From NCBI GenBank assembly GCA_010015585.1, contig ML975153.1: a DNA stretch of 64,000 bases, one strand, 5' to 3'. This stretch comes from Eremomyces bilateralis CBS 781.70. Lineage: Eukaryota. Shown here one piece after another: positions 1 to 46,157 of the stretch. The notes under the pieces are model-generated. The model saw only the letters and a program-made list of their open reading frames with translations. It made no database searches and was not told the DNA's origin. Positions within the stretch are counted from its first letter, which is position 1, and each line of letters starts with the position of its first letter. The position numbers and the translations under genes were made by a program.

Positions 1-30
1 CAGTAGCGGAACTTGCAGGGGCCAATCAAC
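1..30 (+). repeat. Left terminal inverted repeat (30 bp, 5'-CAGTAG)
   Basis: 29/30 match to the reverse complement of 7341-7370; mismatch at position 7 (a CpG). Confidence 0.95.
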
Positions 31-227
31 GGTGGATCAACGGTTGAATGGAATCAACGGTGGATGGATGGTTGAATCTTGGACGACGTATAGAAATGAT
101 ATACGTGGAAGGTGCTATACCGTGGATTACGAAATACCGTGGATCAACGGTAGATTCCGGTACACGAAGTTGAAAATTCCTCGAGGATTCCGATAAACCG
201 TTAATTCACCGTTGATTCACCGTTAAA
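25..227. repeat. Left subterminal array of ATCAACGG / CCGTTGAT motifs
   Basis: ATCAACGG at 25, 36, 53 and 143; inverted CCGTT(G/A)A at 198, 209 and 220. Confidence 0.9.
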
Positions 228-396
228 CTTCAACCACTGAATGAGTTCTTCTATGGATGCCACCACTCTGAACTGTGTGTCGTTTTATCTAAAAGCCCAT
301 TCTACCATCTGTGCCGCCATCGTCAAGCGCATTTAGCTTAGAGATCTCTGTCTGTAATCATTGTAAAACACTTTCCTTGCAATGAAGCTATAGAAA

Positions 397-1802
397 ATGT
401 CTACTGGACAGCAGAACTCGGTCTTAGATGCGCAGGCTCCTTATCCTCTTCTCGATTCTGACGATGAGAATCCCTCTGTTCGGGAAGATTCCCTTTCTCC
501 ACGCGTAAGTTTACTTGTTTTTATATCCCTATGAATCATTTACTATGATTTCCGAGTAAATCCCATATATATTGTAGTAATTGATTCATTTGGTGGTGAA
601 GGCACACAAGCGACAGCGCCGCGAAGAACTCTCTGCGCCGAAGAAGCGCAGTAAGGGGACGAAGAACGGACAAGCGTCCCAGTCCGAGCTTGATTTCCTG
701 TCTCAAGCAAAGAAATTTGGGCGCGAAACTCGGTGGAGTTGGTTCCTCAACCATGACACCGATGCCTATCCTTCGTTGATCCGGAAGGTATATGGCCAGG
801 ATTTTCCAGCCGAAATGACTGCGGATTCTGCCCTCTGGCGCCGGGCCAAACAGGTCTTTAAAGACCAAGTCAAAACGTTCAAGGCCCAAACCATCGAGAA
901 GATGAGAGTAAGTTCAAAATTCTAAGTCCCCAAGTCTAGATTTCCATTTCCCCCTTCTAGATCCCATTTTCAAGTCCAGATCTCATTTCCCCCTTTAGAT
1001 TTCTCTTTTTAAGTCCATATTCCATATCCCAAGTCCAGATCTACATTTCCAAGTCCATTTCAAGTTCAAATCAAGTTTAAATCTCCAGAACGCTATATTT
1101 AACTCCAGATCTATTTGTCCAAATCTAGAATTCAATGTTTAAGTATTTAACTACTATGTATGTAGGACTGGCTCGAGCAGAACGTACTCCTGAATCAAGT
1201 CTTGTCTCGACTAGATTCCGCTGGTGTTGCCCTCCATCTCGGCGAAAAGTTCTCTTCGGAGGATTTCCTTAACGTATGGTATTATATGAAGGGATATCTA
1301 GATGTAGATAAATCCTCTCAATTGGGGGAATTTTATTGCAAGTGTAAGTTATATATTTCATATATCCGCGTTTTATCTCTTGTGTTTTGTCGAACTATGT
1401 TTTATCTAGTTGTCCTTTGAATCTGGATTTTATCCATCTAGATGTATATTCTGTCTAACTGTGTCCTGGCATTTGTCCATTTAAAGCCGCATTTTGCCCA
1501 TAATCTAACGTAAAATAGCCATGTTTATGTCCCTGGGCTCGTTCGTGTGGGGGATTGTTCGGGCGGAGCGTATAGAGAAGACTGGCTCCGAAACGGCGAA
1601 ATCCAAGCTTCATAAAGCTTGGTATTCAATGTGCCTTGCGGAGCCGTTTGAGGACGTGGATAGGGAGTGTTTTAAAGAGCTATTTAATATTAGCTCTGGG
1701 CAGAGGGACCCTACACCGCGTCAAAATGACGCTACACTAGCGACAATGTCGTTTGCACTTATAGCCCCCCCTCCTCACCCCCGCGACTCTAGGTCCGGTT
1801 AG
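397..1802 (+). pseudogene. Transposon accessory gene (TnpA-like position), ~299 aa, unknown family, one in-frame TAA
   Basis: join(397..504,578..907,1166..1343,1519..1802). Three GTAAGT..TAG introns with compatible phases (0,0,1) stitch ORFs 581..925, 1202..1420 and 1521..1802 into one frame. TAA at 578-580. Confidence 0.7.
928..1130. repeat. Degenerate tandem repeats (caagtccagat...catt) in intron 2 of the accessory gene
   Basis: Recurrent caagtctagat / caagtccagat / aagtccatat units followed by cattt/cccc tracts. Confidence 0.6.
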
Positions 1803-2758
1803 TCCCCGTTCTTCTCCCCCCTCTCCTCTCTCCTTTCTCCTCTCCTCCCTCCTCTCCCCCCTCTCTCCCCTTCCATTCGCGCTGTTTCGTTTTCTATGGT
1901 CTGTAGGACCGTGTGGTTGTTTTCTGTAGTCTGGTGTTTGTGGTCTGGTTTCTGTTTCCTATTTTCTTATGTAGTGTGTTTAGAACTGTGTTTTCTGCTC
2001 TGTATTTTATATTCCTGTGCTTTTCTATCAGATGCTCCGTTTTCGTGCAATATTTCTATAGTATAGTACTGCTTACACAGCCGCTAGGTGGCATTGTGCC
2101 TGGACTTCTAGATCTTTGGGATTCCCAACGTATTCTTGGGTATAGGATACATACACGGTATGTGGTTCTTAGACAACCAAACCCAGTTCCCTAACCCCTT
2201 AATATGTCTTGGCTTCTAGTTCCTCTAGGTCATCTCTACCGCCAATAGAAGACCTACTCCCTAATCTATATCTTTATAACCTAGTAGATGATGATCCGTT
2301 GCTAAGGATGGTTCCTAGTATACTTCTTATTCCGGCACGTATTGTCTACCTGCTATAGTGGATCCTACTACCCGCCTACCTGCCTGTCTGCCCGGAATGT
2401 AATTTCCTTTACTAGTTTTCTTTTGAATGATAAAGTAAATAGAATAGAATACGATACTATGTCTAATAGCCTACTGTATTCTCAATTGCGAGAACAACTT
2501 AGGTGCATACCGGTGGTGGATTTCGAAAATTGCAAAGTCCTGATACGCCAGTGTGCCTTCCATTTCTTATATTCCGTACCTGCTACAAACGTACTTAACA
2601 CATTAAAATTCCCACATGCAACCTCTTATCTACCACAGCCTCACCTGCTACAACAGAACTTACACTTACACTCTTCATTCTTAATCTTATCCTTATTTCC
2701 TATTCTCACTCGTATCATCAATCATCTCTATATACCCATTAGATCCGACCTCGTTAAG

Positions 2759-5700
2759 ATGTCTCGTATCCCTATTCGAGGCCTAGCGGATATACTCCTT
2801 GCCAAAACGACACAAAGGCATAGTAGGGACCAAGAAGGAAGCTCTTCAAAGAAGAGGAAGATTAAGGAAGAACTTGTGGACGATAGAGAATTCCTAGCTG
2901 GGTTTAGTGATGACGAAAGTGATTATAACGTCAGTCCTGACCTACATGCCGTAAGTATAATGGATATAATAAATCTGATAAATATTCAACAGAATGACTT
3001 ACAGGTAAATAGGATCTTGCCTCTGATGACCTTACAGAGAACCTCATTGGCCTCCAGACTGACCAGGCTGAAGTCGTTGACGATAATGAGACAACCCTTC
3101 TAGATCTACACGATCTTCGGCTGCTCGAGCAGTTCCAGGATCCTGAAGAGGAAGATATAATACCAACGGTTCCTGTCGATACTATCGATGAGGACGATAT
3201 AGAGACTGTTATATCTGCCACAGTTGGATATCAGCCATCTTTCACTGCCGCACCTTCTACCGCTGTATTTGACACGGTCGCTGGTCCTAGTCACGTCACT
3301 GCTGAGGCCACTGCGGCCATCCAACCGCCTGCGGACTTCGACGACTCAACACCTGTCCCCAACCCTCGAGCAGCCCCTACATCAGACTTTGAGGTTGCAC
3401 TCGGCCTATGGTGTCAAGAGGCAGGTATCTCACGCGCTCAGTGGACAGGCCTTCGAGAAATCCTTAATATGCTGAGCGATGACGCTGTAAAGAAGCTGCC
3501 AAAGGCCCTAGATACCCTGAAGCTACATGCTGTTGGCCAACTCCCTCTCCTTGAGCTCCGTCAGACCCCCATCAAGCTTAATATTGCCAAGCTGCCTGCC
3601 TCAAGGAGGAAAATCATTATGAGCAGAGCATTAGCAGCGGGTCAGGTTGCCACTGCGCCTGACAACCTCTTCTTCTTTAACCCTATCTACCTCTTCCAAG
3701 CTATTCTCTCATCAACGATCCGCGAGCGTATGCATATCGGAATGGCCCATTTCGTTGATGAGCCGGCAGAGCTCTGGCACTCTACCGCCTGGGCCTCTTC
3801 AATCCGCTACTCCTCCGGCGAGTTCCCGCGTCTCCCCGAAGGCCAGGTAGTCTTTCCGTCTGATATTGTACTATACCAGTGCAACGAAGCTATATGCCGC
3901 TGCCACACAGACGCTGACAAAAATCACATCGGTCGCATTCTCTCGTTTGGTAGAGACTACCGTAGCCAACGTGAGCATCGTGGCCCTATTGGATCGGTCG
4001 TCGTCGAGGTCCAAAAGATCGTTCCGTTCATCGATCTTATGGATACACGCCGGGATCTCTTGCTCATGATCATCAAGCTTGACCCTCTGCCAGAAAATAA
4101 GGAACTAGTGATCCTAGAGGATGATATTTCTATGGTTCTCGAGAGTGCTCTTACTCCATATACCTTCAACTTTGACATCTTCCTTGACTATGCCTTCGAG
4201 AGCAGCGTTAAGCTTAGAGACGACAAGAGCCATATTCAAGGCCAGCTCTTTATCCGCCGTATTTTCCGTGGGGACAATATCCGCCCTCTAAACCAGTCTA
4301 GGGCTATCCGTGGCCAGATAGAGATAGCGGAATATGGTCGCCAGTATCTCGTTGACAAGTTTAGCAAAAGTTCTAACATTATCTCTATTCCCCTGCTCGC
4401 CTTTCTTGACGGGTTCGGCTTATTTCGGAACATGTACCGTACGATTATGGGGTTCTATCTCTTATTAGCGCCTCTCCGCAGTTCAGACCGTAATAAGAGG
4501 CAGAATGTCTTCCCACTTACACTCGGCCCGCATGGCAGCAACTTTACAGAGGTTACCGATGCCCTTAGAGGTAGAATAACACAGCTCGAACGAGGCATTG
4601 ATATGCTTATCACCGGTAAGCAGTTTACCGTCTGCGTCTCTGTTATGGCATATATTGGTGATATGCCCCAGCAGCAGACCAATTCAGGCTTCCGATCTGT
4701 CGCCGCCGAATCTACTTGCAGGATGTGTCTTGTCGAGACTGCCCAACGTGGCCTCCTTGATTTTGATATCGAAGCCCGCGGCCGATACCACTATGAAGTT
4801 ATACGTCAGAGGGCTTCTATCCGAAGCAGACCTAACAAGATCCAGAGGAAGATTACGGCCGATAAGTTAGGTATGGAAGCAGAGGACCCGGCATTGATGA
4901 AACTGAGTCCTGCTCTTGATCTCGTCCTCTCCCGTCCTCCCGATCCTTTCCACTCTGAACTCAATGGCATCACGAAGCTTACGCACCTTCTGTGGAATGG
5001 AGATCTCTTGACAAAAAAGGCCGCAGCCGAATATGGTCGGTTGCTCCGCTCTTTTCCGTTCCCTCCCGGATGGGGTCGTCTCCAAGCTCCTGAGCACTAC
5101 ATCGGAAGCTACTCCCTTCAAGAGCACGCCCGATGGAGCGTTATTGCCCCCTGCCTGGCTCGAGTTTGGTTACGCGAAAAGCATATCCAGAATGCGTACT
5201 TCGAGGGCGTCCATATTGCGTTTAAAGATATTATGGTCGAGATTGGTGAATCTAGCAAGAACCCCAGCAGACAGCTTGTCCCAAACTTGATCGTTACGGC
5301 GTTATCGGCGATTGCCAAGTCTAACATGCTCTGCACTGCTTCTCACCTGACGCAAGGAGAGCGTCAAACTTTCGATACGGATATCAAGCGGTGCCGTGAC
5401 ATGTTTAAGCGGCTCTGCAGAGCTGCTGCTCTTGCGTCGTCGAGTCGTCGGACATCTGTTAATCCGCCTGCCTCAGATACTGCCCCCCAGGTAGGCGGAA
5501 AATCAACTGCTAGCCAGATAGTCGTCTCATCGATCGAGACGCCAGGGCCAATGCAAGGACAGACAGCCATAGATGGTGCCCTCACCACAAAAAAGGCCAT
5601 CCAGTTCCAACGGGATCAGCAGAGGCCAAATGTCCATATTGGTTTACATTTTCAAGAGGTTCTCCGTGAGTATGCCATCCCTGCTAACGCGGGTGTCCTG

Positions 5701-6609
5701 CCTGGTGAGAACAAGCATAAGGAGTACAAGAATGCCATCCTCCTTACAAATAAGCGCAACCCTGAGAAGGACCTCCTCTAGCGCGAGAATATTCGTCAAA
5801 CCCTCCGCCTCGCCCTTACCGGTGCCTTTCCTAATGCCAAGATCACTAAGCAGCTCCAAGACATTGACCAAGCCTGTCCAACGCTCTTCCGCACTCTGTT
5901 TCCACAGGAGACTATGCGTCTGGCGATCGATGAAGATAATACCGGCGATACCGTCGAGAACATCATCTTTGACGATGGTCATCGTAATCCTACAGCGCAG
6001 TCTAAGATCCAGCAGAAGTATTGCCGCGAGACGCTCAAGCTCCCTACACGCCCGTCACATATGACAGCAGGTTTCCGTGGTAATTTATCCTCTGCCTATC
6101 TCCGAGACTATGGGCGGAACGTACACCATATGGGAACCAGTGTCGTCGAGTGGTGGAAGAAGTTCTCGTTTGATGCCAATAATAAGAGGACTACTTTTGG
6201 ACGAGGTGACTTCATCCAGGTCCGTGGTACCACCCTTAAGGTATGCGGTATCGACGATATCTTCACGCATGAAGCGCTGCCCGGCTATAAGCGCCTGTTC
6301 CTCATCCTGACGCCCACCTTGCAACCCACCGAACGTGTCGATCCTGCGCCTACCTCACAACACACCGGATGCGTCAATCCTGTATCGACCTCGCAAGCCA
6401 CCGGACGTATTGACCCTATTCTCAAGCTCCCTCTCCTGCGTATTGAAGGCGAGGAGCAGCAGTTCTTCGTCGGCCTTCCTGCTATCGAAGCTACCAAGCT
6501 CTTTATCCTCCCCGTCAAGGAACACGACGGACATGACAATGAGATACCGTTGGACAAGGATTCGGACACGCTGCTATATGTAAACTGGAGCAAGATCCAC
6601 TTTATGTAG
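2759..6609 (+). pseudogene. CACTA/EnSpm/Plavaka-like DDE transposase, ~1,260 aa, single premature TAG
   Basis: join(2759..2950,3013..6609), intron GTAAGT..TAG. The frame is open 3013-5778 and again 5782-6606. Motifs: AFLDGFG (D, 4408), YIGDMPQQ (D, 4660), CRMC, DPFH..NG, NVHIGLH, GENKH (E, 5707). TAG at 5779-5781. Confidence 0.88.
6322..6417 (+). repeat. 36-bp coding tandem repeat (~2.7 copies) in the transposase C-terminus
   Basis: QPTERVDPAPTS / QHTGCVNPVSTS / QATGRIDP; units start at 6322, 6358 and 6394. Confidence 0.75.
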
Positions 6610-6710
6610 TGCCTGGCGCCAGACAAGCTTAAGATAGCTGGCTGTCAGGAGAGATAGATGAGACGGATCTGTGTAATAAGAAGGGCGCTCTGGTGGCTTG
6701 CAAACTATAC

Positions 6711-6777
6711 GATAGATGGATGGATGGATGGATGGATGGATGGATGGATAGATGGATGGATAGATGGGTGGATGGAT
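6711..6777. repeat. (GATG)n microsatellite downstream of the transposase
   Basis: gatggatggatg... with GATA interruptions. Confidence 0.95.
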
Positions 6778-7149
6778 TCTGATGGCTTACAAAGTGTATG
6801 ATGGATGGACGAGATGAATAGATGGATAGATCGCTGCACTGATGGCATCAAATGGGTGTCTGGGACCGATGGGACGAAAACAATACACCGGCATACACTT
6901 CCTACCGTGGGAGGTAAAGTCTCTCTACACCGACCACAGGAGCGCCGCACTACCTCTAACCCACCCAACTCTGTTCGACTCTTAACATGAAGGGGATTTT
7001 ACACGCGATACAGCGATGTATGTATAATACACAGGCTTTCCGATAAGCTTAGCAAAACATTCAAGCAGCATGGGGGGCTGGTTGTAACGAGTAAAACATT
7101 CCTGCAAGTGAACCACGTGATTAGTAGTCGATCTGCGGTGGACAAACCA

Positions 7150-7346
7150 ATCAACGGTATAGACCCCGATCAACCGTTGATATACCGTTGAATAAGTCTA
7201 TACGTATAATGAAATCAACGGTGTAGGCGAAAATCAACCGTTGAATGCGTTATACGAAGATGCGAAATCAACGGGGAAACTTCGGTTGATTCGTATCAAC
7301 GGTTGATTTCTTTCAACGGTGGATCAACGGTATATCAACGGTTGAT
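7150..7346. repeat. Right subterminal array of ATCAACGG / CCGTTGA motifs
   Basis: ATCAACGG at 7150, 7214, 7267, 7295, 7323 and 7334; inverted CCGTTGA at 7174, 7185 and 7238. Confidence 0.9.
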
Positions 7347-7370
7347 TGGCCCCTGCAAGTTCCACTACTG
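7341..7370 (-). repeat. Right terminal inverted repeat
   Basis: gttgattggcccctgcaagttccactactg. Confidence 0.95.
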
Positions 7371-7479
7371 CGTGTTGCAGTTGCAAGGGAACGAGGCAAC
7401 AAGGCACTCTTCCCAAGGCCGCCAGGCCAAAGAGCCATCAATCTGGGCCAGAAGCCCAAGACCGTTACATCCCTTTCGC

Positions 7480-8150
7480 TCAAGTCGAAAGCATGTTCCT
7501 AATAGTTGTGTCAAATTGCTCAGGTTCGCGGCCAAGTATTTGAGCCAAATTTGGGGTAACGGCTGCACATTCGCCATCGCGGATCGCATCAAACGCAGTT
7601 GTCCAGATAGGCGCCCAGTTACTACCCCGATATGTGAGATCAGTGTGGACCTGTGGCTGTTTGACATACTCATCCACAAGTACCTGACGGATCACGATTG
7701 GCTTATTGAGCACGCGGCTGAAGACATCCGCTGTTTCATTAAGAGACCGAGCACGAGGGCAAGAGGCGACTTGCTGCGTGTTGTTGGAAGGATTGAGCAG
7801 GTGGTCAACAGTCAATACAACAAGTACAGGAAACAGATTGCTTCTTCTAAACGCAGCGTTAAATTCAAGTACAGACTGGAGTCAATGCGGCAATGCCATT
7901 CCTGCCTCCCGGCATTCATGACATCCTTACCCCACCAGCATTTGAACGCATTAGACAACAGGATCTGCTGCACCAGAAGGAGCAAACATAACGTCGTCGG
8001 GGGAATCCTTGTTCTGGCCTCTTTGAGAAGATAAATGGTCTTCCATGTCATCATACGCTGCGAGATGTGATGCATTCTGGATCGACGTTACGACCAAACC
8101 ACCTTTACGACGATTATTGGCGCTATCAACGTAAGCAAGGTCGGTCAATA
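7480..8150 (-). pseudogene. Decayed NmrA-like / atypical SDR gene (C-terminal part recognisable)
   Basis: PRARSLNETADVFSRVLNKPIVIRQVLVDEYV...GECAAVTPNLAQILGREPEQFDTTIRNML resembles the C-terminus of fungal NmrA-type proteins. No Rossmann GxxGxxG N-terminus is seen; the 5' limit is approximate. Confidence 0.6.
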
Positions 8151-8278
8151 ATCCTCTCTCTAAGCCTATATCGATCTATCCTAGAGCCGCAGTTGAACGA
8201 CGTGCACTGCCGTCTCTTCCTTAATCCCAGGGTCAAACACTTGCTGATGTCTTACGACACATAAATACCTCTGTCGCC

Positions 8279-8803
8279 GTGTTAATTCCTACATCTTTAC
8301 TAGCTGCGAATGCTATAACTACTTCTATATCTGTATCGATTCCTGAACCTGCTCTTGTGTCTTCCCCTACTCCATCTCATTTGCCTTCATCTGTTTCTAT
8401 TAAAGTGTCTATTACTACGGCTCAACCCCCTCTACAGTCTGCCTGGCAACCTTTGTCGTTAGAAGAGTTCTTTGCTGACGTCGAGTGTCGACGGCTTCAG
8501 CCCACTCTGTATAACTGCAGTGACTTGAACACATTGAACAATTTTTTGGCGGAGACAGGGCAGGAAAAGGACCCCATAGAAGTGATCGAAGCACGGAATA
8601 TGGCTCTCGCTACAAGCGGAGTGTATGCTTCCTGCACTCCAACAATGGCATGGAATTATCACTTTGGAGATGTGGAAGCTTTCTACGCTGAAAGATTTGC
8701 ACAAGCCGATGCTCAAAATGTGCTTAGAGAGCGCCCTAAGCGCGCACTAGCAGAGGCGGCTTCAAATTCATGGAAAGGACTCGGTCCGCGCAAGAGCCAG
8801 TGA
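8279..8803 (+). other. ORF of unknown nature, possibly a TE or gene relic
   Basis: 174-codon ORF with a non-ATG start in TpA-rich sequence; no family recognised. Confidence 0.2.
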
Positions 8804-9454
8804 CGTCAGTAGAAAGAAGATAGGCGTGATAATATAGACTAGCTGATATAGGTTATTTGAGAGGAGTAGACGGAAGCCTCCCGCCGAACACCCTTTCGTA
8901 TGCTTATGGAAGTGCTACATGGAGAGCGCTTACACGCGAACAGTTCGAGAATATGTACTTACAAACGTATATCTATAGTTAGGAGTGCGTACGATCGTGA
9001 ACGACTTGCTTGATGTAATTTATTCTATACTAGTATCAATTGGGAAACTGGGTGGAAAATCTCACCAGCCTCAGCAGTATGTACTGTAATACTCGAACGG
9101 CAGAGGGATGGCGCAGGCCAGGGCATCAGCTCTGGAGGCTGGGAGCCTGAGGTTATAACCTGCATTGATAATAACCGATATATTTTGGAGAAAGGGGAAG
9201 TAAACAGCGCGTGAGGTCGCTACTGCGATGGTTGCCTGAAGGTGATGTGATGAAGTAAAATTGCCGGTCGCTCCCATAGGTGATAGGAGATGTTATTTAC
9301 AACAACGATTAGAATAATGGGTATCCAAGGGTCGCTTCGCCGCCCAGGCGTATCGTCATCCACGCTCAGTGCTCCACGCTCACCGCACATGGCCAGATCA
9401 GCTTCTGTCCCCGAGGCAACCAATGTGTCGCCGGTAATGGGACATCAGAAATAT

Positions 9455-41127: not shown

Positions 41128-44100
41128 CTATGAAAAGAAATATGGACTGTCCCTCACTCGTCGGACATCGAAATCGCCCTTCTCGGGAACGGGCGGGAAC
41201 GTCAGTGGAAGCCACACGGGGGATATTAGTGTGAAGCTTGGTTTGGCTTTCGCTTGCGGCTTCGTCTCCGCTGTGTGTGCATTCGCATCCGCTTGCAATG
41301 CCTTCACTTCTTCCTCGACCTCGGCTTCCAGAACCTCTTCCGCTTCCTGCTGCAGAGATACCTCCAAGATGGAAGTCGACTGGGCGTGGGCTTCGTAGAT
41401 GCTCGCGGGTGTGACCATCTCTCGTCCAAGCCGCTGGTCCTCCTCATCGGCCGAGTTCAAGAGATCTTGCCGCTTTTTCTCCTCGATCAATTCATCCAAC
41501 TGCCAGCTTCCCTTCTTCGCCATGGTCTTGTATCTCTCGGCGCGGAACTTTTTGATCTTCTTCCCAACCGCACTGCGGGCCTTCACCGTAGCGAGGTAGA
41601 GTGAGCCCCGATGACGAGCCTTCAACTCCTCGGCAAGGCGGTCGATGATATTCTCGGAATGCATGGCGACGAACGCCTCTCGCAGGACGCGGTTCATGAC
41701 CGGAACATCGGCGGCATGAGTCCAGAAGGAGTCGTGCACCGAAGCAAACGTCAGGCCCAGTTCGTCGCATTTCAGCGCCGTCAGCATCATATGTGTGGCA
41801 TCAAGCGAGTGGACGAAGTTTGGTGGGAACCCTTGGAGTTGCTTGCGCTTGGAGACGGCGTCATTCAGCTTGGGTTGCTTGATTGTGATCGACTGCAGGG
41901 TCGATTGGACCTGGCGATCGTCTGAAGCACGGTAGGGTTGAACAACGGTGAGCTTTAGAGGAGTGGTCCAAATCACGCTCGATTGGAACTGCTCTTTGAT
42001 CAACTTTATTGTCGACGCACGGTTTAGTTTGGCGGGAGGCTTGGAGCCCTTGATGCGGGTTTTGCCTTGCACTTTGGAGACTGGCTTAGGTTTCTTTTCG
42101 AACCCCCTCTTCGCGAGGCGGTCAATTTGCTCGGCGGTGACTGCAGTTGAGATGCGGAAAGCGCATTGTCCAAACCAGTCCTGGATGTCGTGGGCGCCTT
42201 GGAACATGGTCGAGAGGGCTTTGAAGATTTTATGAGCGATGTATGCGGCCAGCTGGTAGTTTGAAACGTTCGATTCCGAGCGATCGGGCATAATGTCGTC
42301 CAATTGTCGTTGAACTTGGTCTCGAGCACCGACAAAAGTGACTCCGTAGACGTTGGTCATCACCGTCTGTTTGACGACCTTTCTTGTGATCTTGCCATCC
42401 AGTGCTAACGCCATTGGATGGCCCTCTGCAACCTCTTCTTTGATTGCAGCTTTAACAAGGTTGGCAACACCGGAATACACATCCGCTGGCCGTTCTCCGG
42501 GTTCAAGATTGACCTGGGCAGCGCCAAAGGAATCTCCGCCCAAGGCGGCGTAATGCTGTAGGCCGTTACATGTACCGTCTTGGTGAACGGGAAGAGATGA
42601 TTTGTATTTGGAGGGATCCGGAGAGTCAATCGCTTTCACCAAGTCCATGCACGCAGCCAGGCATTGCCATGGATCGGCAGCCTTTAGCCACCATCTGCTC
42701 CCGGTCAGAGGATTGGCCGCGGAGTCGCGAATGTCCTCGATATGAGACGCCGTGAAATCCGCTCTCTCGGTAAGACTGGCCTTGTCGAAACCGTGCAGGT
42801 TGGCAACCTGGACTTTCAACCAAAAAAGGCCCTGTTCTCCAAGCTCCTTCGCGACCCCAAACTGGAGTAACCCACGGGCATTATCGGCGCCCATATGGTT
42901 CAAAAATGGAGGCATCGGATAGGCTCGGCCTCGGAAGTCGATGTTATGAGGGAAGTACATGGATTTTCCTAGGAACGCGCGGGCGACTTCCAGTTGTAGA
43001 TTCTGAAAGCACCGGTTGGAATGATAGCCACCGATCTCATTGTCGATCGCCTGGCGCCGACGTAGCCAGATGGCTTTCGCGACGTCCCCTTCTTCGGTCG
43101 ATGGTTCCGGGGGATACGGGATATCGGGGTTTGCGGGCGGAATATCTGCAATCGCCTCTCCGGTGTTCCAGGCTTCCGCCATGACGGTCAGAAGGTCTTC
43201 ATTGATCCGCCACGGTGTCCGGCCCAAGACGTTTAGGCTTTTGAACAGCTGATCTAGGTCTCCTCGAGCGGCCGATGCGAAGAGATACATCTTCTGCGTC
43301 TCGTCTCCGGTTTTATCGCGAACTAGGCGCGAAGGCAATGTCAAGAAGCCGCCATCCTTAGGGCTTTCCCACGGCTTCGGTTCGACCAACATCGGAAGGC
43401 GTGCGCCTAACAAACCTCGGGGCGGCTCCCGAGCAAGGAGTTCTCGAAGAGCATCGTGAGCGTGGATCAACCCAATGTGTTTGCCCCGCACATAGGTTAC
43501 GTCGTGTCGCAGCGCCGGTTCCGGCTTAAATTCCGGTTTTGGGGCCTCTAGATTTTGCTGGCGGACGTCGATTCGTGCGACCTGGACCAACTTCGCAAGT
43601 AGAGTACCACCCACCATGACTCGTGCTCCAACAGGCCATTCCGTCTGCCTAGACATCAAGTATTTCGCTTCGTCAAGCTCGACAACATTGATGGAGGTGC
43701 CTTTGGCTGAGGTGTTACTCGGTTCTTGCGCCTTAGGGGTAGCGGCTTGCTTCGCTAATTTCTTCGTTCTTCGTTGCGCCTTCTTGGACTTTCCCACCCT
43801 TTTCTCCCACAATGCTCCTGCTTCATCCTGCAGCGCTGCGGCGATCTTCAGGGTGATGCGTCCGAGTTTGACACCGGGAGCAATTCCTTCACTGACAAGT
43901 TCCTGCAAGGTACAGACGATCGTGATAGCGCAAAGCTTCTCCGGAGGAAGTAGCGCAAAGTAAGGCGCGTACCTGACTGTGTCGTGAAGGTGTATCGTCC
44001 CTATCTTGTCTTCCTTCGTTTTGACGGATTCGATTTCCTTTTGGACCTTTGGGAGCAATGCAGAATACCAATTCCATAGCATCGCCTTGATGGACTTTGA

Positions 44101-45240
44101 TTGGAATGCGGGGTTGATCCCCATCTTGACCATATTTTCATGCTCCGCACGCCACTCGTCGACTGCCGCATCGATGGAGTCCTGCTCTAGTCTCTCCTGC
44201 TGTTCGAACTTCCATTGGTAGTACGCACTCAAGTCTCCGTGCATTTTTTGAAGCATCGTCGCATCATCGGAGTCCTCAAGGGAAACCAAACTCTTCTTCA
44301 AAGTCTGGAGCCCAAGACCTCTTTGTTCCACGGATTGGATCTGAAGAGGCTTGGTCGTCGGCTCCTCTAAGAAGGGAGTGTCCCGGGCGATCGGAGAGGA
44401 TTCTTGGGATATGTCGGAGTGTGACTCAATGAGAAGATTCAGCGTCCTCCACTCCGAGTGCGTGAATTCGCCGGAATCGAGTAGCTGAGCAAGGATCCGA
44501 GTCTTCTCCGCAGCTATTTCAAGATATCGACGAAGACTTCGTACCTGCCTCTCACCGGAGAGCGCCGTTATACTTGCGCGGCACATCAGAGCAAGCGTGG
44601 TCTCGTTCGGCTGTATGCCATTTCGTCTCATCTCCCTTTCGAACCAATACTGAAGCCTCCCAATTCGGTCGCCATTGGGGTTTCGGACAATGGCTTCCAC
44701 GTTGGCTCGGATGTATAGATTGTGCGCCTCCACTAGCTGAGGGTTCGATGGTGGGAAAATCTCTCCGAGGCGCTGAAGGAGTGCTTCGGCTCGATCGAAC
44801 AACCCGACTTGCAACGAGGCTCTCATATTTTGTACTAACTCGACCGGTTCGCCTCGGAGTGGGAATGGGTTATGAACGTAATGGAAGTTGATCTCGAACG
44901 GGTCAGTCTTGTCGAGCCCGAAGGCATCGACCATCGCGTCGCTCGAGGCATCTGGCGGCAATTGCAGAGAATTGCTCGGGTATAGAAGATTTGAACCGTA
45001 AAGGGAGGAGTCGGTAGCAGTCGCTAAGGGTCGTACTTCAGTCTGTGATCTCGGTGTGTTCGCGCCATTCTCCCTGGATGTGATAGGTAACGAAGGCCGT
45101 CGCCTCGCAGGCGTGTAGTAGGACGAGCTCGTTTGTTGGAAGGTAGGTCTTCTCTGCAATCGGCTCGCGCCCGGTATTATGAGGTGTCTAGATGCATTGT
45201 GAGGTTTTTGTATTGAACGTCGAAGGGATCGCGTGAGCAT
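41128..45240 (-). CDS. rpo41: Mitochondrial T7-like DNA-directed RNA polymerase
   Basis: 1370-aa ORF with an R-rich presequence; DFRGRAYP, HQDGTCNGLQHY, RKVVKQTVMTNVYG, PPNFVHSLDA, SVHDSFWTH; SPYFFS end. Confidence 0.99.
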   Translation of the reverse strand: MLTRSLRRSIQKPHNASRHLIIPGASRLQRRPTFQQTSSSYYTPARRRPSLPITSRENGANTPRSQTEVRPLATATDSSLYGSNLLYPSNSLQLPPDASSDAMVDAFGLDKTDPFEINFHYVHNPFPLRGEPVELVQNMRASLQVGLFDRAEALLQRLGEIFPPSNPQLVEAHNLYIRANVEAIVRNPNGDRIGRLQYWFEREMRRNGIQPNETTLALMCRASITALSGERQVRSLRRYLEIAAEKTRILAQLLDSGEFTHSEWRTLNLLIESHSDISQESSPIARDTPFLEEPTTKPLQIQSVEQRGLGLQTLKKSLVSLEDSDDATMLQKMHGDLSAYYQWKFEQQERLEQDSIDAAVDEWRAEHENMVKMGINPAFQSKSIKAMLWNWYSALLPKVQKEIESVKTKEDKIGTIHLHDTVRYAPYFALLPPEKLCAITIVCTLQELVSEGIAPGVKLGRITLKIAAALQDEAGALWEKRVGKSKKAQRRTKKLAKQAATPKAQEPSNTSAKGTSINVVELDEAKYLMSRQTEWPVGARVMVGGTLLAKLVQVARIDVRQQNLEAPKPEFKPEPALRHDVTYVRGKHIGLIHAHDALRELLAREPPRGLLGARLPMLVEPKPWESPKDGGFLTLPSRLVRDKTGDETQKMYLFASAARGDLDQLFKSLNVLGRTPWRINEDLLTVMAEAWNTGEAIADIPPANPDIPYPPEPSTEEGDVAKAIWLRRRQAIDNEIGGYHSNRCFQNLQLEVARAFLGKSMYFPHNIDFRGRAYPMPPFLNHMGADNARGLLQFGVAKELGEQGLFWLKVQVANLHGFDKASLTERADFTASHIEDIRDSAANPLTGSRWWLKAADPWQCLAACMDLVKAIDSPDPSKYKSSLPVHQDGTCNGLQHYAALGGDSFGAAQVNLEPGERPADVYSGVANLVKAAIKEEVAEGHPMALALDGKITRKVVKQTVMTNVYGVTFVGARDQVQRQLDDIMPDRSESNVSNYQLAAYIAHKIFKALSTMFQGAHDIQDWFGQCAFRISTAVTAEQIDRLAKRGFEKKPKPVSKVQGKTRIKGSKPPAKLNRASTIKLIKEQFQSSVIWTTPLKLTVVQPYRASDDRQVQSTLQSITIKQPKLNDAVSKRKQLQGFPPNFVHSLDATHMMLTALKCDELGLTFASVHDSFWTHAADVPVMNRVLREAFVAMHSENIIDRLAEELKARHRGSLYLATVKARSAVGKKIKKFRAERYKTMAKKGSWQLDELIEEKKRQDLLNSADEEDQRLGREMVTPASIYEAHAQSTSILEVSLQQEAEEVLEAEVEEEVKALQADANAHTAETKPQAKAKPSFTLISPVWLPLTFPPVPEKGDFDVRRVRDSPYFFS

Positions 45241-46157
45241 TTGCTCCGCGTCGATATGGGATGGACAACGAGCGAAAGGGGGGGATAAGGTCGATCAATG
45301 CATCCTATGTTGGACGGACCAAAGATATTCTTCGGGATTCCGGATGACCAGAGTGTCTATGCGTGTAGCAATAATGAATGGGATGTGGCAAAGAGTATCT
45401 TCAACTTCTCATCTTCGGAGCTCCACGTCGGAAATTATTGGATCGACCCATTTTTCAGCTTACATAACCAGAGCCTCCTATCCATGCACGTGACCAGAAG
45501 GGGTCAAGGGGATATCAGTTCATGACTTCGTCTTGTAAACAAGAGATGCGAACCGCAAGCGGGTGTCGCTGAAAGAGAGCCTGGAGGAACGAAGCTAGAG
45601 TTCACATGCCCACATTATAATATTATATAATATATATACCGGGGTTTTATGTCTTAGATTGGTTCATTTATAACTTTCTAATAAAAAACATAGATGATAG
45701 TGGCGTTGGAGCATGGAAATACAGTCGTGTTGCCCAAGGCGCGCTTCGCACTCTTTCCGGGAAAGAAGCTCACTTACAGCCAAAGAATTGTAATTTTTGA
45801 GATACACATAGATTTGCATGTATAGAAGCGACGAAAGAGCGCAATTTAGAGGTAGAATCTGAGGACCTGTGAAATTGCCGCCGAAAAGAACGGTTTAAAA
45901 CGCTCACTCTTTCCCTTCCCATCACCATCACCACAGTAGGAAGCTAATATGGACCCACACAACCAGATGCTGGGACAACTCCAGACGTGCCTAGAACATA
46001 CGCTGCCGTAATTGGCAGAACGGGGCGATATCCCTCTACCAGTCTACCTCCATCTCATACCGCCTCTGGGTACCATGGAGCTCACATTCAAAATCGTTGG
46101 AGAGAGATCATGTCCGGATTTACCTATCATCATATGTTGCCTACAGATTACATAACG

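Follow-up and report, generated by a model that had tools for sequence, protein, structure and literature searches.

A two-gene CMCT/Plavaka-like DNA transposon of Eremomyces bilateralis from a Pezizomycotina transposase lineage largely missed by Pfam

Here we describe a DNA transposon that occupies positions 1–7370 of a 64,000-nucleotide stretch of contig ML975153.1 from the ascomycete Eremomyces bilateralis CBS 781.70 (assembly GCA_010015585.1; the whole stretch is referred to as the window), together with the protein family to which its transposase belongs. The element carries two spliced genes on one strand, a small partner gene upstream of a large transposase gene, between inverted ends. 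Both the transposon and its partner gene are real; the element is of the already known CMCT/Plavaka-like kind, and its mechanism is one that we infer. By CMCT we mean the CACTA/EnSpm–Mirage–Chapaev–Transib clade, and the membership list we used also counts Plavaka and ESTA. We assign a probability of roughly 0.85 to the reading that this is a class II cut-and-paste transposon of a large and unnamed Pezizomycotina CMCT lineage, with Plavaka as its nearest named group, that works by the mechanism proposed below.

The element is bounded by terminal inverted repeats at 1–47 (+ strand, 5′-CAGTAGCGGAACTTGCAGGGGCCAATCAAC..., beginning at the window edge) and 7324–7370 (− strand, ...CCACTACTG), which pair over 47 nucleotides with 87% complementarity. 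Compared by eye, the starts of the two arms (CAGTAGCGG... on the left and CAGTAGTGG... on the right) agree at 29 of their first 30 bases, the sole mismatch being a C/T at base 7, and within the 64-kb window the 23-mer CAGTAGYGGAACTTGCAGGGGCC is restricted to the two ends (shuffle expectation 0.00). The termini read CAGTAG...CTACTG, that is, they are of the CA..TG type, and the bases just beyond the right end are cgtgtt. As the element starts at window base 1, its left flank and any target-site duplication lie beyond the window, whose first base is taken as the outer limit of the left repeat. No second copy or fragment of it occurs elsewhere in the 64 kb. Its GC content (0.37–0.54) resembles that of its flank and thus gives no indication of repeat-induced point mutation.

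Both subterminal regions are crowded with TCAACGG(T) units in both orientations. The left array (24–227) holds exact TCAACGG copies at 26, 37, 54 and 144 on the + strand and at 209 on the − strand, with one-mismatch copies at 119, 136, 197 and 219, and the right array (7149–7346) holds ten exact copies between 7151 and 7341. The 7-mer is found 23 times in the window, compared to a shuffle mean of 9.01 and a shuffle maximum of 17, and 15 of these 23 fall in 26–215 and 7151–7341. Of the 16 copies of the 8-mer TCAACGGT, 14 lie in the terminal 570 bp and two in the 56.6 kb outside the element, and the 6.8-kb interior has none.

The large gene starts at position 2759 and consists of a first exon of 64 codons (2759–2950, + strand), a 62-nucleotide intron (2951–3012) and a second exon in one single frame (3013–6606, stop codon at 6607–6609); the splice follows the database protein model P0001, which joins ...DLHA to DLASDD.... 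In an alignment of 58 family sequences, numbered from the reading frame that opens at 3013, the catalytic core (4408–4959, + strand) comprises D466 (4408–4410), D550 (4660–4662), C569 and C572 (4717–4719 and 4726–4728), and H647 with E649 (4951–4959). D466, D550, C569 and C572 are each present in 58/58 sequences, the window copy included, and H593, H647 and E649 are present in 52, 57 and 55 of the 58, respectively, with E649 again found in the window copy. The CxxC motif (C569-x2-C572), present in all 58 sequences, lies 19 residues past D550, the two histidines are conserved singly, with no conserved H-x3-4-H pair seen in this alignment, and roughly 450 conserved residues precede the core.

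These results bear out most of what an earlier reading of the letters alone, here called the original prediction, had proposed: near-perfect 30-bp terminal inverted repeats, bilateral subterminal arrays, the right flank cgtgtt and a large DDE transposase in the same orientation as a spliced accessory gene. It had also called the element complete, which it is not. The second exon is broken by an in-frame TAG at 5779–5781, which splits it into two open reading frames in one frame (3013–5781 and 5782–6609) and removes the conserved C-terminal 275 residues; a second database model, P0002, ends at this codon too. At this position 14/14 aligned relatives are colinear and each has a sense codon, and the 275 residues beyond it still match relatives, with E values down to 2e-29 against the fetched loci. 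The window copy is thus one nonsense codon within an otherwise intact 1,262-codon frame; it cannot make the full-length enzyme and is probably dead or dependent on another copy. Within the C-terminal coding part, a 36-bp tandem repeat (6304–6382, 2.2 copies) encodes a repeated 12-residue proline/threonine-rich stretch, and a (GATG)n microsatellite (6711–6777, period 4, 16.8 copies) lies in the 3′ untranslated part.

The transposase belongs to a large family: a threshold of E ≤ 1e-3 gives 1594 cluster representatives and one of E ≤ 1e-30 gives 366, and the closest non-self member is 41% identical. All named members are from Pezizomycotina and all are labelled ‘hypothetical protein’ or misnamed (Coccidioides posadasii, Bogoriella megaspora, Chaenotheca gracillima, Sclerophora amabilis, Flavoplaca navasiana, Biscogniauxia mediterranea, Jackrogersella minutella, Xylaria longipes and Sodiomyces alkalinus). 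Two relatives are under purifying selection, with a non-synonymous rate (dN) of 0.149 compared to a synonymous rate (dS) of 1.06, the latter near saturation; a further pair, L023 and L004, was dropped as saturated (dS 2.15).

Pfam covers little of this family. Plavaka (PF18759) is the sole transposase family matched among 75 relatives, of which 13 match it at E ≤ 1e-3 and 62 do not, and only four reach its 26.3-bit cut-off. All of these matches are partial and correspond to profile positions ~190–320 of 325, which span the second D through the E. Neither Transposase_21 nor Transposase_24 was matched by any of the 76 proteins scanned (the window transposase and the 75 relatives), nor by the partner. 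In a language-model atlas, Transposase_21 makes up 18 and Plavaka nine of the 30 nearest clusters (score 0.93), which we take as a lead only. Of the Plavaka and Transposase_21 models, with which the original prediction had suggested a comparison, some relatives match Plavaka and the window protein matches neither. The D..D..CxxC..E pattern, the weak Plavaka matches and the Transposase_21/Plavaka neighbours in the atlas together support the predicted assignment to a CMC/Plavaka-related ascomycete group, and from these sequence features we conclude that the large protein is most likely a CMCT-clade DDE transposase that has a distant link to Plavaka and falls largely outside the Pfam Plavaka model.

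The partner gene (397–1799, + strand) has exons at 397–504, 602–907, 1166–1343 and 1519–~1797, with GT..AG borders throughout, and these four exons reproduce the database protein P0171 (326 amino acids, ‘hypothetical protein’, Eremomyces bilateralis CBS 781.70). Two extra short 3′ exons in the P0171 model (near 2088–2157 and 2322–2357) are unsupported by relatives. Intron 2 contains 39-bp tandem repeats (931–1057), and a CT-rich low-complexity tract (1803–1871) directly follows the conserved coding part. P0171 matches no Pfam family, and a word-based protein search returned only P0171 itself among 1238 candidates, likely because its relatives are unannotated, often spliced and in metagenome contigs.

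For the partner survey we used 72 fetched loci that encode transposase relatives; 20 of them reach 1.3 kb or more beyond the transposase on its upstream side and so are informative (L005 and L006 represent the same locus, recovered twice). With tblastn, homologues of P0171 appear just upstream of the transposase in eight loci (L002, 1e-19; L046, 9e-16; L021, 7e-15; L011, 8e-12; L004, 2e-9; L018, 3e-9; L017, 3e-8; L001, 3e-7), and a profile built from those eight adds three loci outside the training set (L052, 1.8e-9; L027, 2.9e-9; L040, 6.3e-8). The partner gene is therefore found upstream of the transposase in 11/20 informative loci, where L029, which is marginal (E 0.0076), is counted as lacking it. 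The same profile matches only 394–1799 in the 64-kb window and none of 171 transposase relatives, so that no partner–transposase fusion was found among these.

In the partner-bearing loci the transposases are only 26–40% identical to that of the window, and the partner always lies less than ~3 kb upstream. It is divergent from the transposase in 10/11 loci and co-directional in L001, as in the window. In a tree of the catalytic core the window groups with L010, L001 and L005 (support 92/90), so that the tandem gene order looks derived; most other nodes in this tree are unresolved. In several loci the partner reading frame breaks at the same two exon borders, and in L021 the gene is intronless. 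In L001 (53 nucleotides, 81%) and L052 (57 nucleotides, 96%), candidate inverted repeats enclose the partner, which brings the elements with a partner inside their repeats to three when that of the window is included. As it recurs upstream of related transposases, inside repeats in two of them, we consider it a real partner gene. That it could instead be a captured host gene or a chance neighbour, outside the transposition machinery, would be in line with the nine informative loci that lack it (L003, L005, L006, L010, L029, L050, L060, L063 and L072) and with the word-based search that gave no homologue; its recurrence close upstream of such distant transposases, its place inside three pairs of repeats, its shared exon borders and a profile that matches nothing else in the window make this explanation very unlikely.

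Several of the related loci show further features. L034 has a partner fragment (3029–3208, − strand, E 1.2e-5) downstream of its transposase match, and this fragment could come from an adjacent element or indicate a different gene order. The closest same-orientation two-gene relative, L001 (5960–9462), has a transposase split into many short frames and is a decayed copy. In L003 (2190–5118), a piggyBac-type transposase (DDE_Tnp_1_7, E 1.6e-50) is nested in the related element and separates two stretches that L060 has side by side, and thus one DNA transposon has inserted into another. In L005/L006 (5962–8794), near-identical in two assemblies, a transposase relative has neither partner nor inverted repeats, and its flanks hold reading frames of Dynamin_N, DUF7587 and C2H2 zinc-finger type; this copy may have been stranded or domesticated.

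The ends of the element are not shared by its relatives. Its terminal 12-mer is found in 0/72 related loci, TCAACGGT never occurs more than twice in any of them, and the candidate inverted repeats that surround the transposase in four of the 22 longer loci (L001, L042, L052 and L063) start differently. Thus, CAGTAG ends and TCAACGGT arrays are traits of the window’s element and not of its lineage. Of the two features that the original prediction proposed to look for in homologues, the upstream gene is kept in just over half of the informative loci and the CAGTA ends are not kept. Among the relatives, the left end is fixed at TACCATGCC in L015 and L042, two copies of one family, and the right end at ...TGTGCACACGGT in L004 and L025, with L004 carrying its own GTGTCGACA repeats near that end. 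An inner TACC(A/T)T is common to L001, L042 and L052, and CTTGC(A/T)GG is common to the window and L042. The flanks of L042, L052 and L063 have no matching 2–3 bp that would make a target-site duplication, and in the same check the ends of L001 were blurred by a local palindrome.

These relatives also bear on where the element begins. Its true ends could lie five bases inward, so that it would start with GYGGAAC, TA would be the target-site duplication, CAG/CTG a palindromic target and the ‘CAGTA termini’ a misreading. Ends that begin TA-CC are indeed present in relatives (at three independent ends in the L015/L042 family and on both sides in L001), and the related ESTA lineage is reported to have TA duplications (PMC12730594). 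Yet CAG...CTG extends the inverted repeat and fits the CA..TG rule of the clade (PMC12730594), the bases just outside CAGTAG at the right end are CG and not TA, and the inverted repeat of L052 runs six bases past TACC, so that TA there is more likely part of the repeat. We therefore regard inner ends as improbable and retain CAGTAG as the terminus. The original prediction described CAGTA as atypical, and whereas it is indeed not CACTA, CA..TG ends are usual for CMCT (PMC12730594), which makes it less atypical than claimed.

Under the mechanism we propose, the transposase, by means of D466, D550 and E649 and a CxxC motif of zinc type, would cut at the CAGTAG ends and would reinsert the element with a short target duplication. 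The subterminal arrays would be bound by a protein that the element itself encodes. The helical partner is the most likely candidate and may bring the ends together as TnpA does for En/Spm; alternatively, the transposase’s own N-terminal region may read them. Our preferred reading, that the partner is TnpA-like, binds the TCAACGGT arrays and pairs the ends, draws on the En/Spm analogy and on a weak fold lead. The AlphaFold model of the partner has a helical core (residues ~60–240) with a predicted local distance difference test (pLDDT) score of 70–87 and disordered ends (overall pLDDT 60). Foldseek found no match to it at E ≤ 1e-3, whereas VIA-align ranked the Homeo-prospero DNA-binding domain first in both modes, a weak lead and the only one for its fold. 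An assignment to DUF6532, offered by the language model (score 0.95, 167 shared features), was not borne out, as 0/14 partner sequences match PF20149 at E ≤ 1.

There is a serious rival for the role of the partner, in which the transposon is the same and the partner regulates the transposase or counters host silencing, in parallel with accessory genes that have been reported from VANDAL and other Plavaka elements, and the N-terminal region of the transposase reads the TCAACGGT arrays. The conservation of the partner in relatives without visible subterminal arrays and the long conserved region ahead of the catalytic core speak for it, and the Plavaka accessory genes that are printed in 10.1101/2025.02.11.637652 and PMC12730594, as far as their available portions go, are chromatin or DNA-modification proteins. 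Against it, the sole fold lead for the partner points to a DNA-bound domain, and no enzyme-like domain was found in the protein. The arrays, moreover, sit where En/Spm has its TnpA sites. We hold a regulatory or anti-silencing role to be possible, at low confidence. Returning to the TnpA-like partner, we only tentatively extend it to the lineage as a whole, which could be a Pezizomycotina-wide unnamed CMCT lineage level with Plavaka and ESTA, built on an ancestral two-gene unit in which the transposase is joined by a new helical partner that binds DNA and is homeo-prospero-like; the window copy would then be a rare one that keeps both genes and has evolved En/Spm-like arrays, and its partner would do the job of TnpA but have arisen independently.

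Within the E. bilateralis genome, P0171 is recorded under two GenBank accessions with two locus tags, and in each case the next accession number belongs to a transposase model. The first of these models, P0001, comes from a 1.53-Mb contig and matches the window over 738 residues, and the second, P0002, comes from a 2.11-Mb contig and matches it over 612, both at 100% identity. The genome thus holds two annotated copies with both genes. Three sequencing runs contain this stretch, and among those listed none is recorded as RNA.

Several observations weigh against the overall reading. The in-frame TAG makes the activity of the window copy doubtful, and the two annotated copies could in principle be an assembly duplication. 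The window transposase matches no Pfam family at E ≤ 1, and a profile of 58 family members matches no solved structure in a sequence-profile search. The helical core of the partner is neutral (isoelectric point 7.0), and no DNA-binding family matched the partner in sequence and fold searches; the neutral core and the lack of such a match by sequence also favour the regulatory role. The partner gene is missing in 9/20 informative loci, and L042, a relative that measures 4.9 kb between its repeats, is too short to contain it, so that one-gene forms exist. Finally, bilateral 7-mer arrays are absent in 4/4 relatives with candidate ends.

The rest of the window carries ordinary housekeeping genes (mitochondrial RNA polymerase, ESF1, Leo1, XAP5 and a WD40 protein). 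The first of these is an uninterrupted 1387-codon frame at 41128–45291 (− strand) for a single-subunit, mitochondrial-type RNA polymerase (RNA_pol, E 6e-192), and the element thus sits amid a gene-rich region. No tRNA or Rfam family was found in window positions 1–9000.

In Ascomycota, DNA transposons of the CMC type are described as rare or as badly covered by catalogues. The fungal CMC entries of Repbase are listed as Basidiomycota and Mucorales in the available portion of PMC5751038, and our literature search found no description of the lineage, its partner gene or CAGTAG ends, although Repbase and Dfam were outside that search and could hold a prior entry. The suggestion that the element is poorly described stands. 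A large family of ‘hypothetical proteins’ spread over classes of Pezizomycotina is, on this view, a transposase lineage with a recurrent partner gene, largely missed by Pfam. To name it would help the annotation of repeats in ascomycetes and would add a second, independent case in which to ask why a helper protein is needed by some CACTA-like elements, and the window copy, with clear ends, clear arrays and a single nonsense codon, is a convenient start for experiments.

Among the systems to which the element can be compared, En/Spm of maize (TnpD and TnpA) has inverted ends of the CA...TG type, short-motif arrays in both orientations within the subterminal ~200 bp, and two element-encoded proteins. 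The window element shares the CA...TG ends, the bilateral subterminal arrays and the two proteins. It differs in ending in CAGTA rather than CACTA, in having no Pfam match to Transposase_21 (TnpD) or Transposase_24 (TnpA), and in having two genes, each with its own ATG, where En/Spm has one alternatively spliced unit.

The CMCT clade as a whole is described with a D..D..CxxC..E layout, mostly CA..TG ends and 2–5 bp duplications (PMC12730594). The window element has the CxxC motif, the CA..TG termini and, at the sequence level, the DDE triad. Within this clade Plavaka is the only Pfam family that its relatives match, from the second D to the E, and the likeness extends to fungal hosts, inverted ends, a CxxC past the second D and size (6–9 kb for Plavaka in the text to Fig. 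S2 of PMC12730594, 7.37 kb here). The window protein and 62/75 relatives nevertheless lack a PF18759 match, and the first ~190 profile positions are never matched. The Plavaka families shown in the available portion of PMC12730594 are all basidiomycete (PlavakaA and PlavakaB of Agaricomycotina), with TGT..ACA ends and 2-bp duplications in PlavakaA and CATCA..TGATG ends and 2–3 bp duplications in PlavakaB, and Plavaka of Tuber, earlier misclassified by automatic tools, has CATAC ends and 2-bp duplications (PMC12581995); all of these ends differ from CAGTAG. The only accessory gene given for fungal Plavaka in the available text of 10.1101/2025.02.11.637652 is a TET/JBP dioxygenase, compared to an all-helical protein without a family here.

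ESTA elements, which are EnSpm-like, occur in rust fungi and have TA duplications (PMC12730594), are likewise a fungal CMCT lineage outside the Pfam models, and some of their consensus ends carry subterminal short repeats (PMC12730594, supplement); by description they are set apart by their CACCAC/CACGGC ends and their Pucciniales hosts (PMC12730594). The giant Plavaka elements of red algae resemble the window element in that they combine a Plavaka-type transposase with conserved accessory genes (PAG1-3), and one of their accessory proteins is proposed to bind repeats within the element (10.1101/2025.02.11.637652). Compared by description, they are 17–19 kb long and their three accessory genes contain parts of methylase/SET and ParB-like/oxygenase type, whereas the element of E. 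bilateralis has one helical protein of 326 amino acids.

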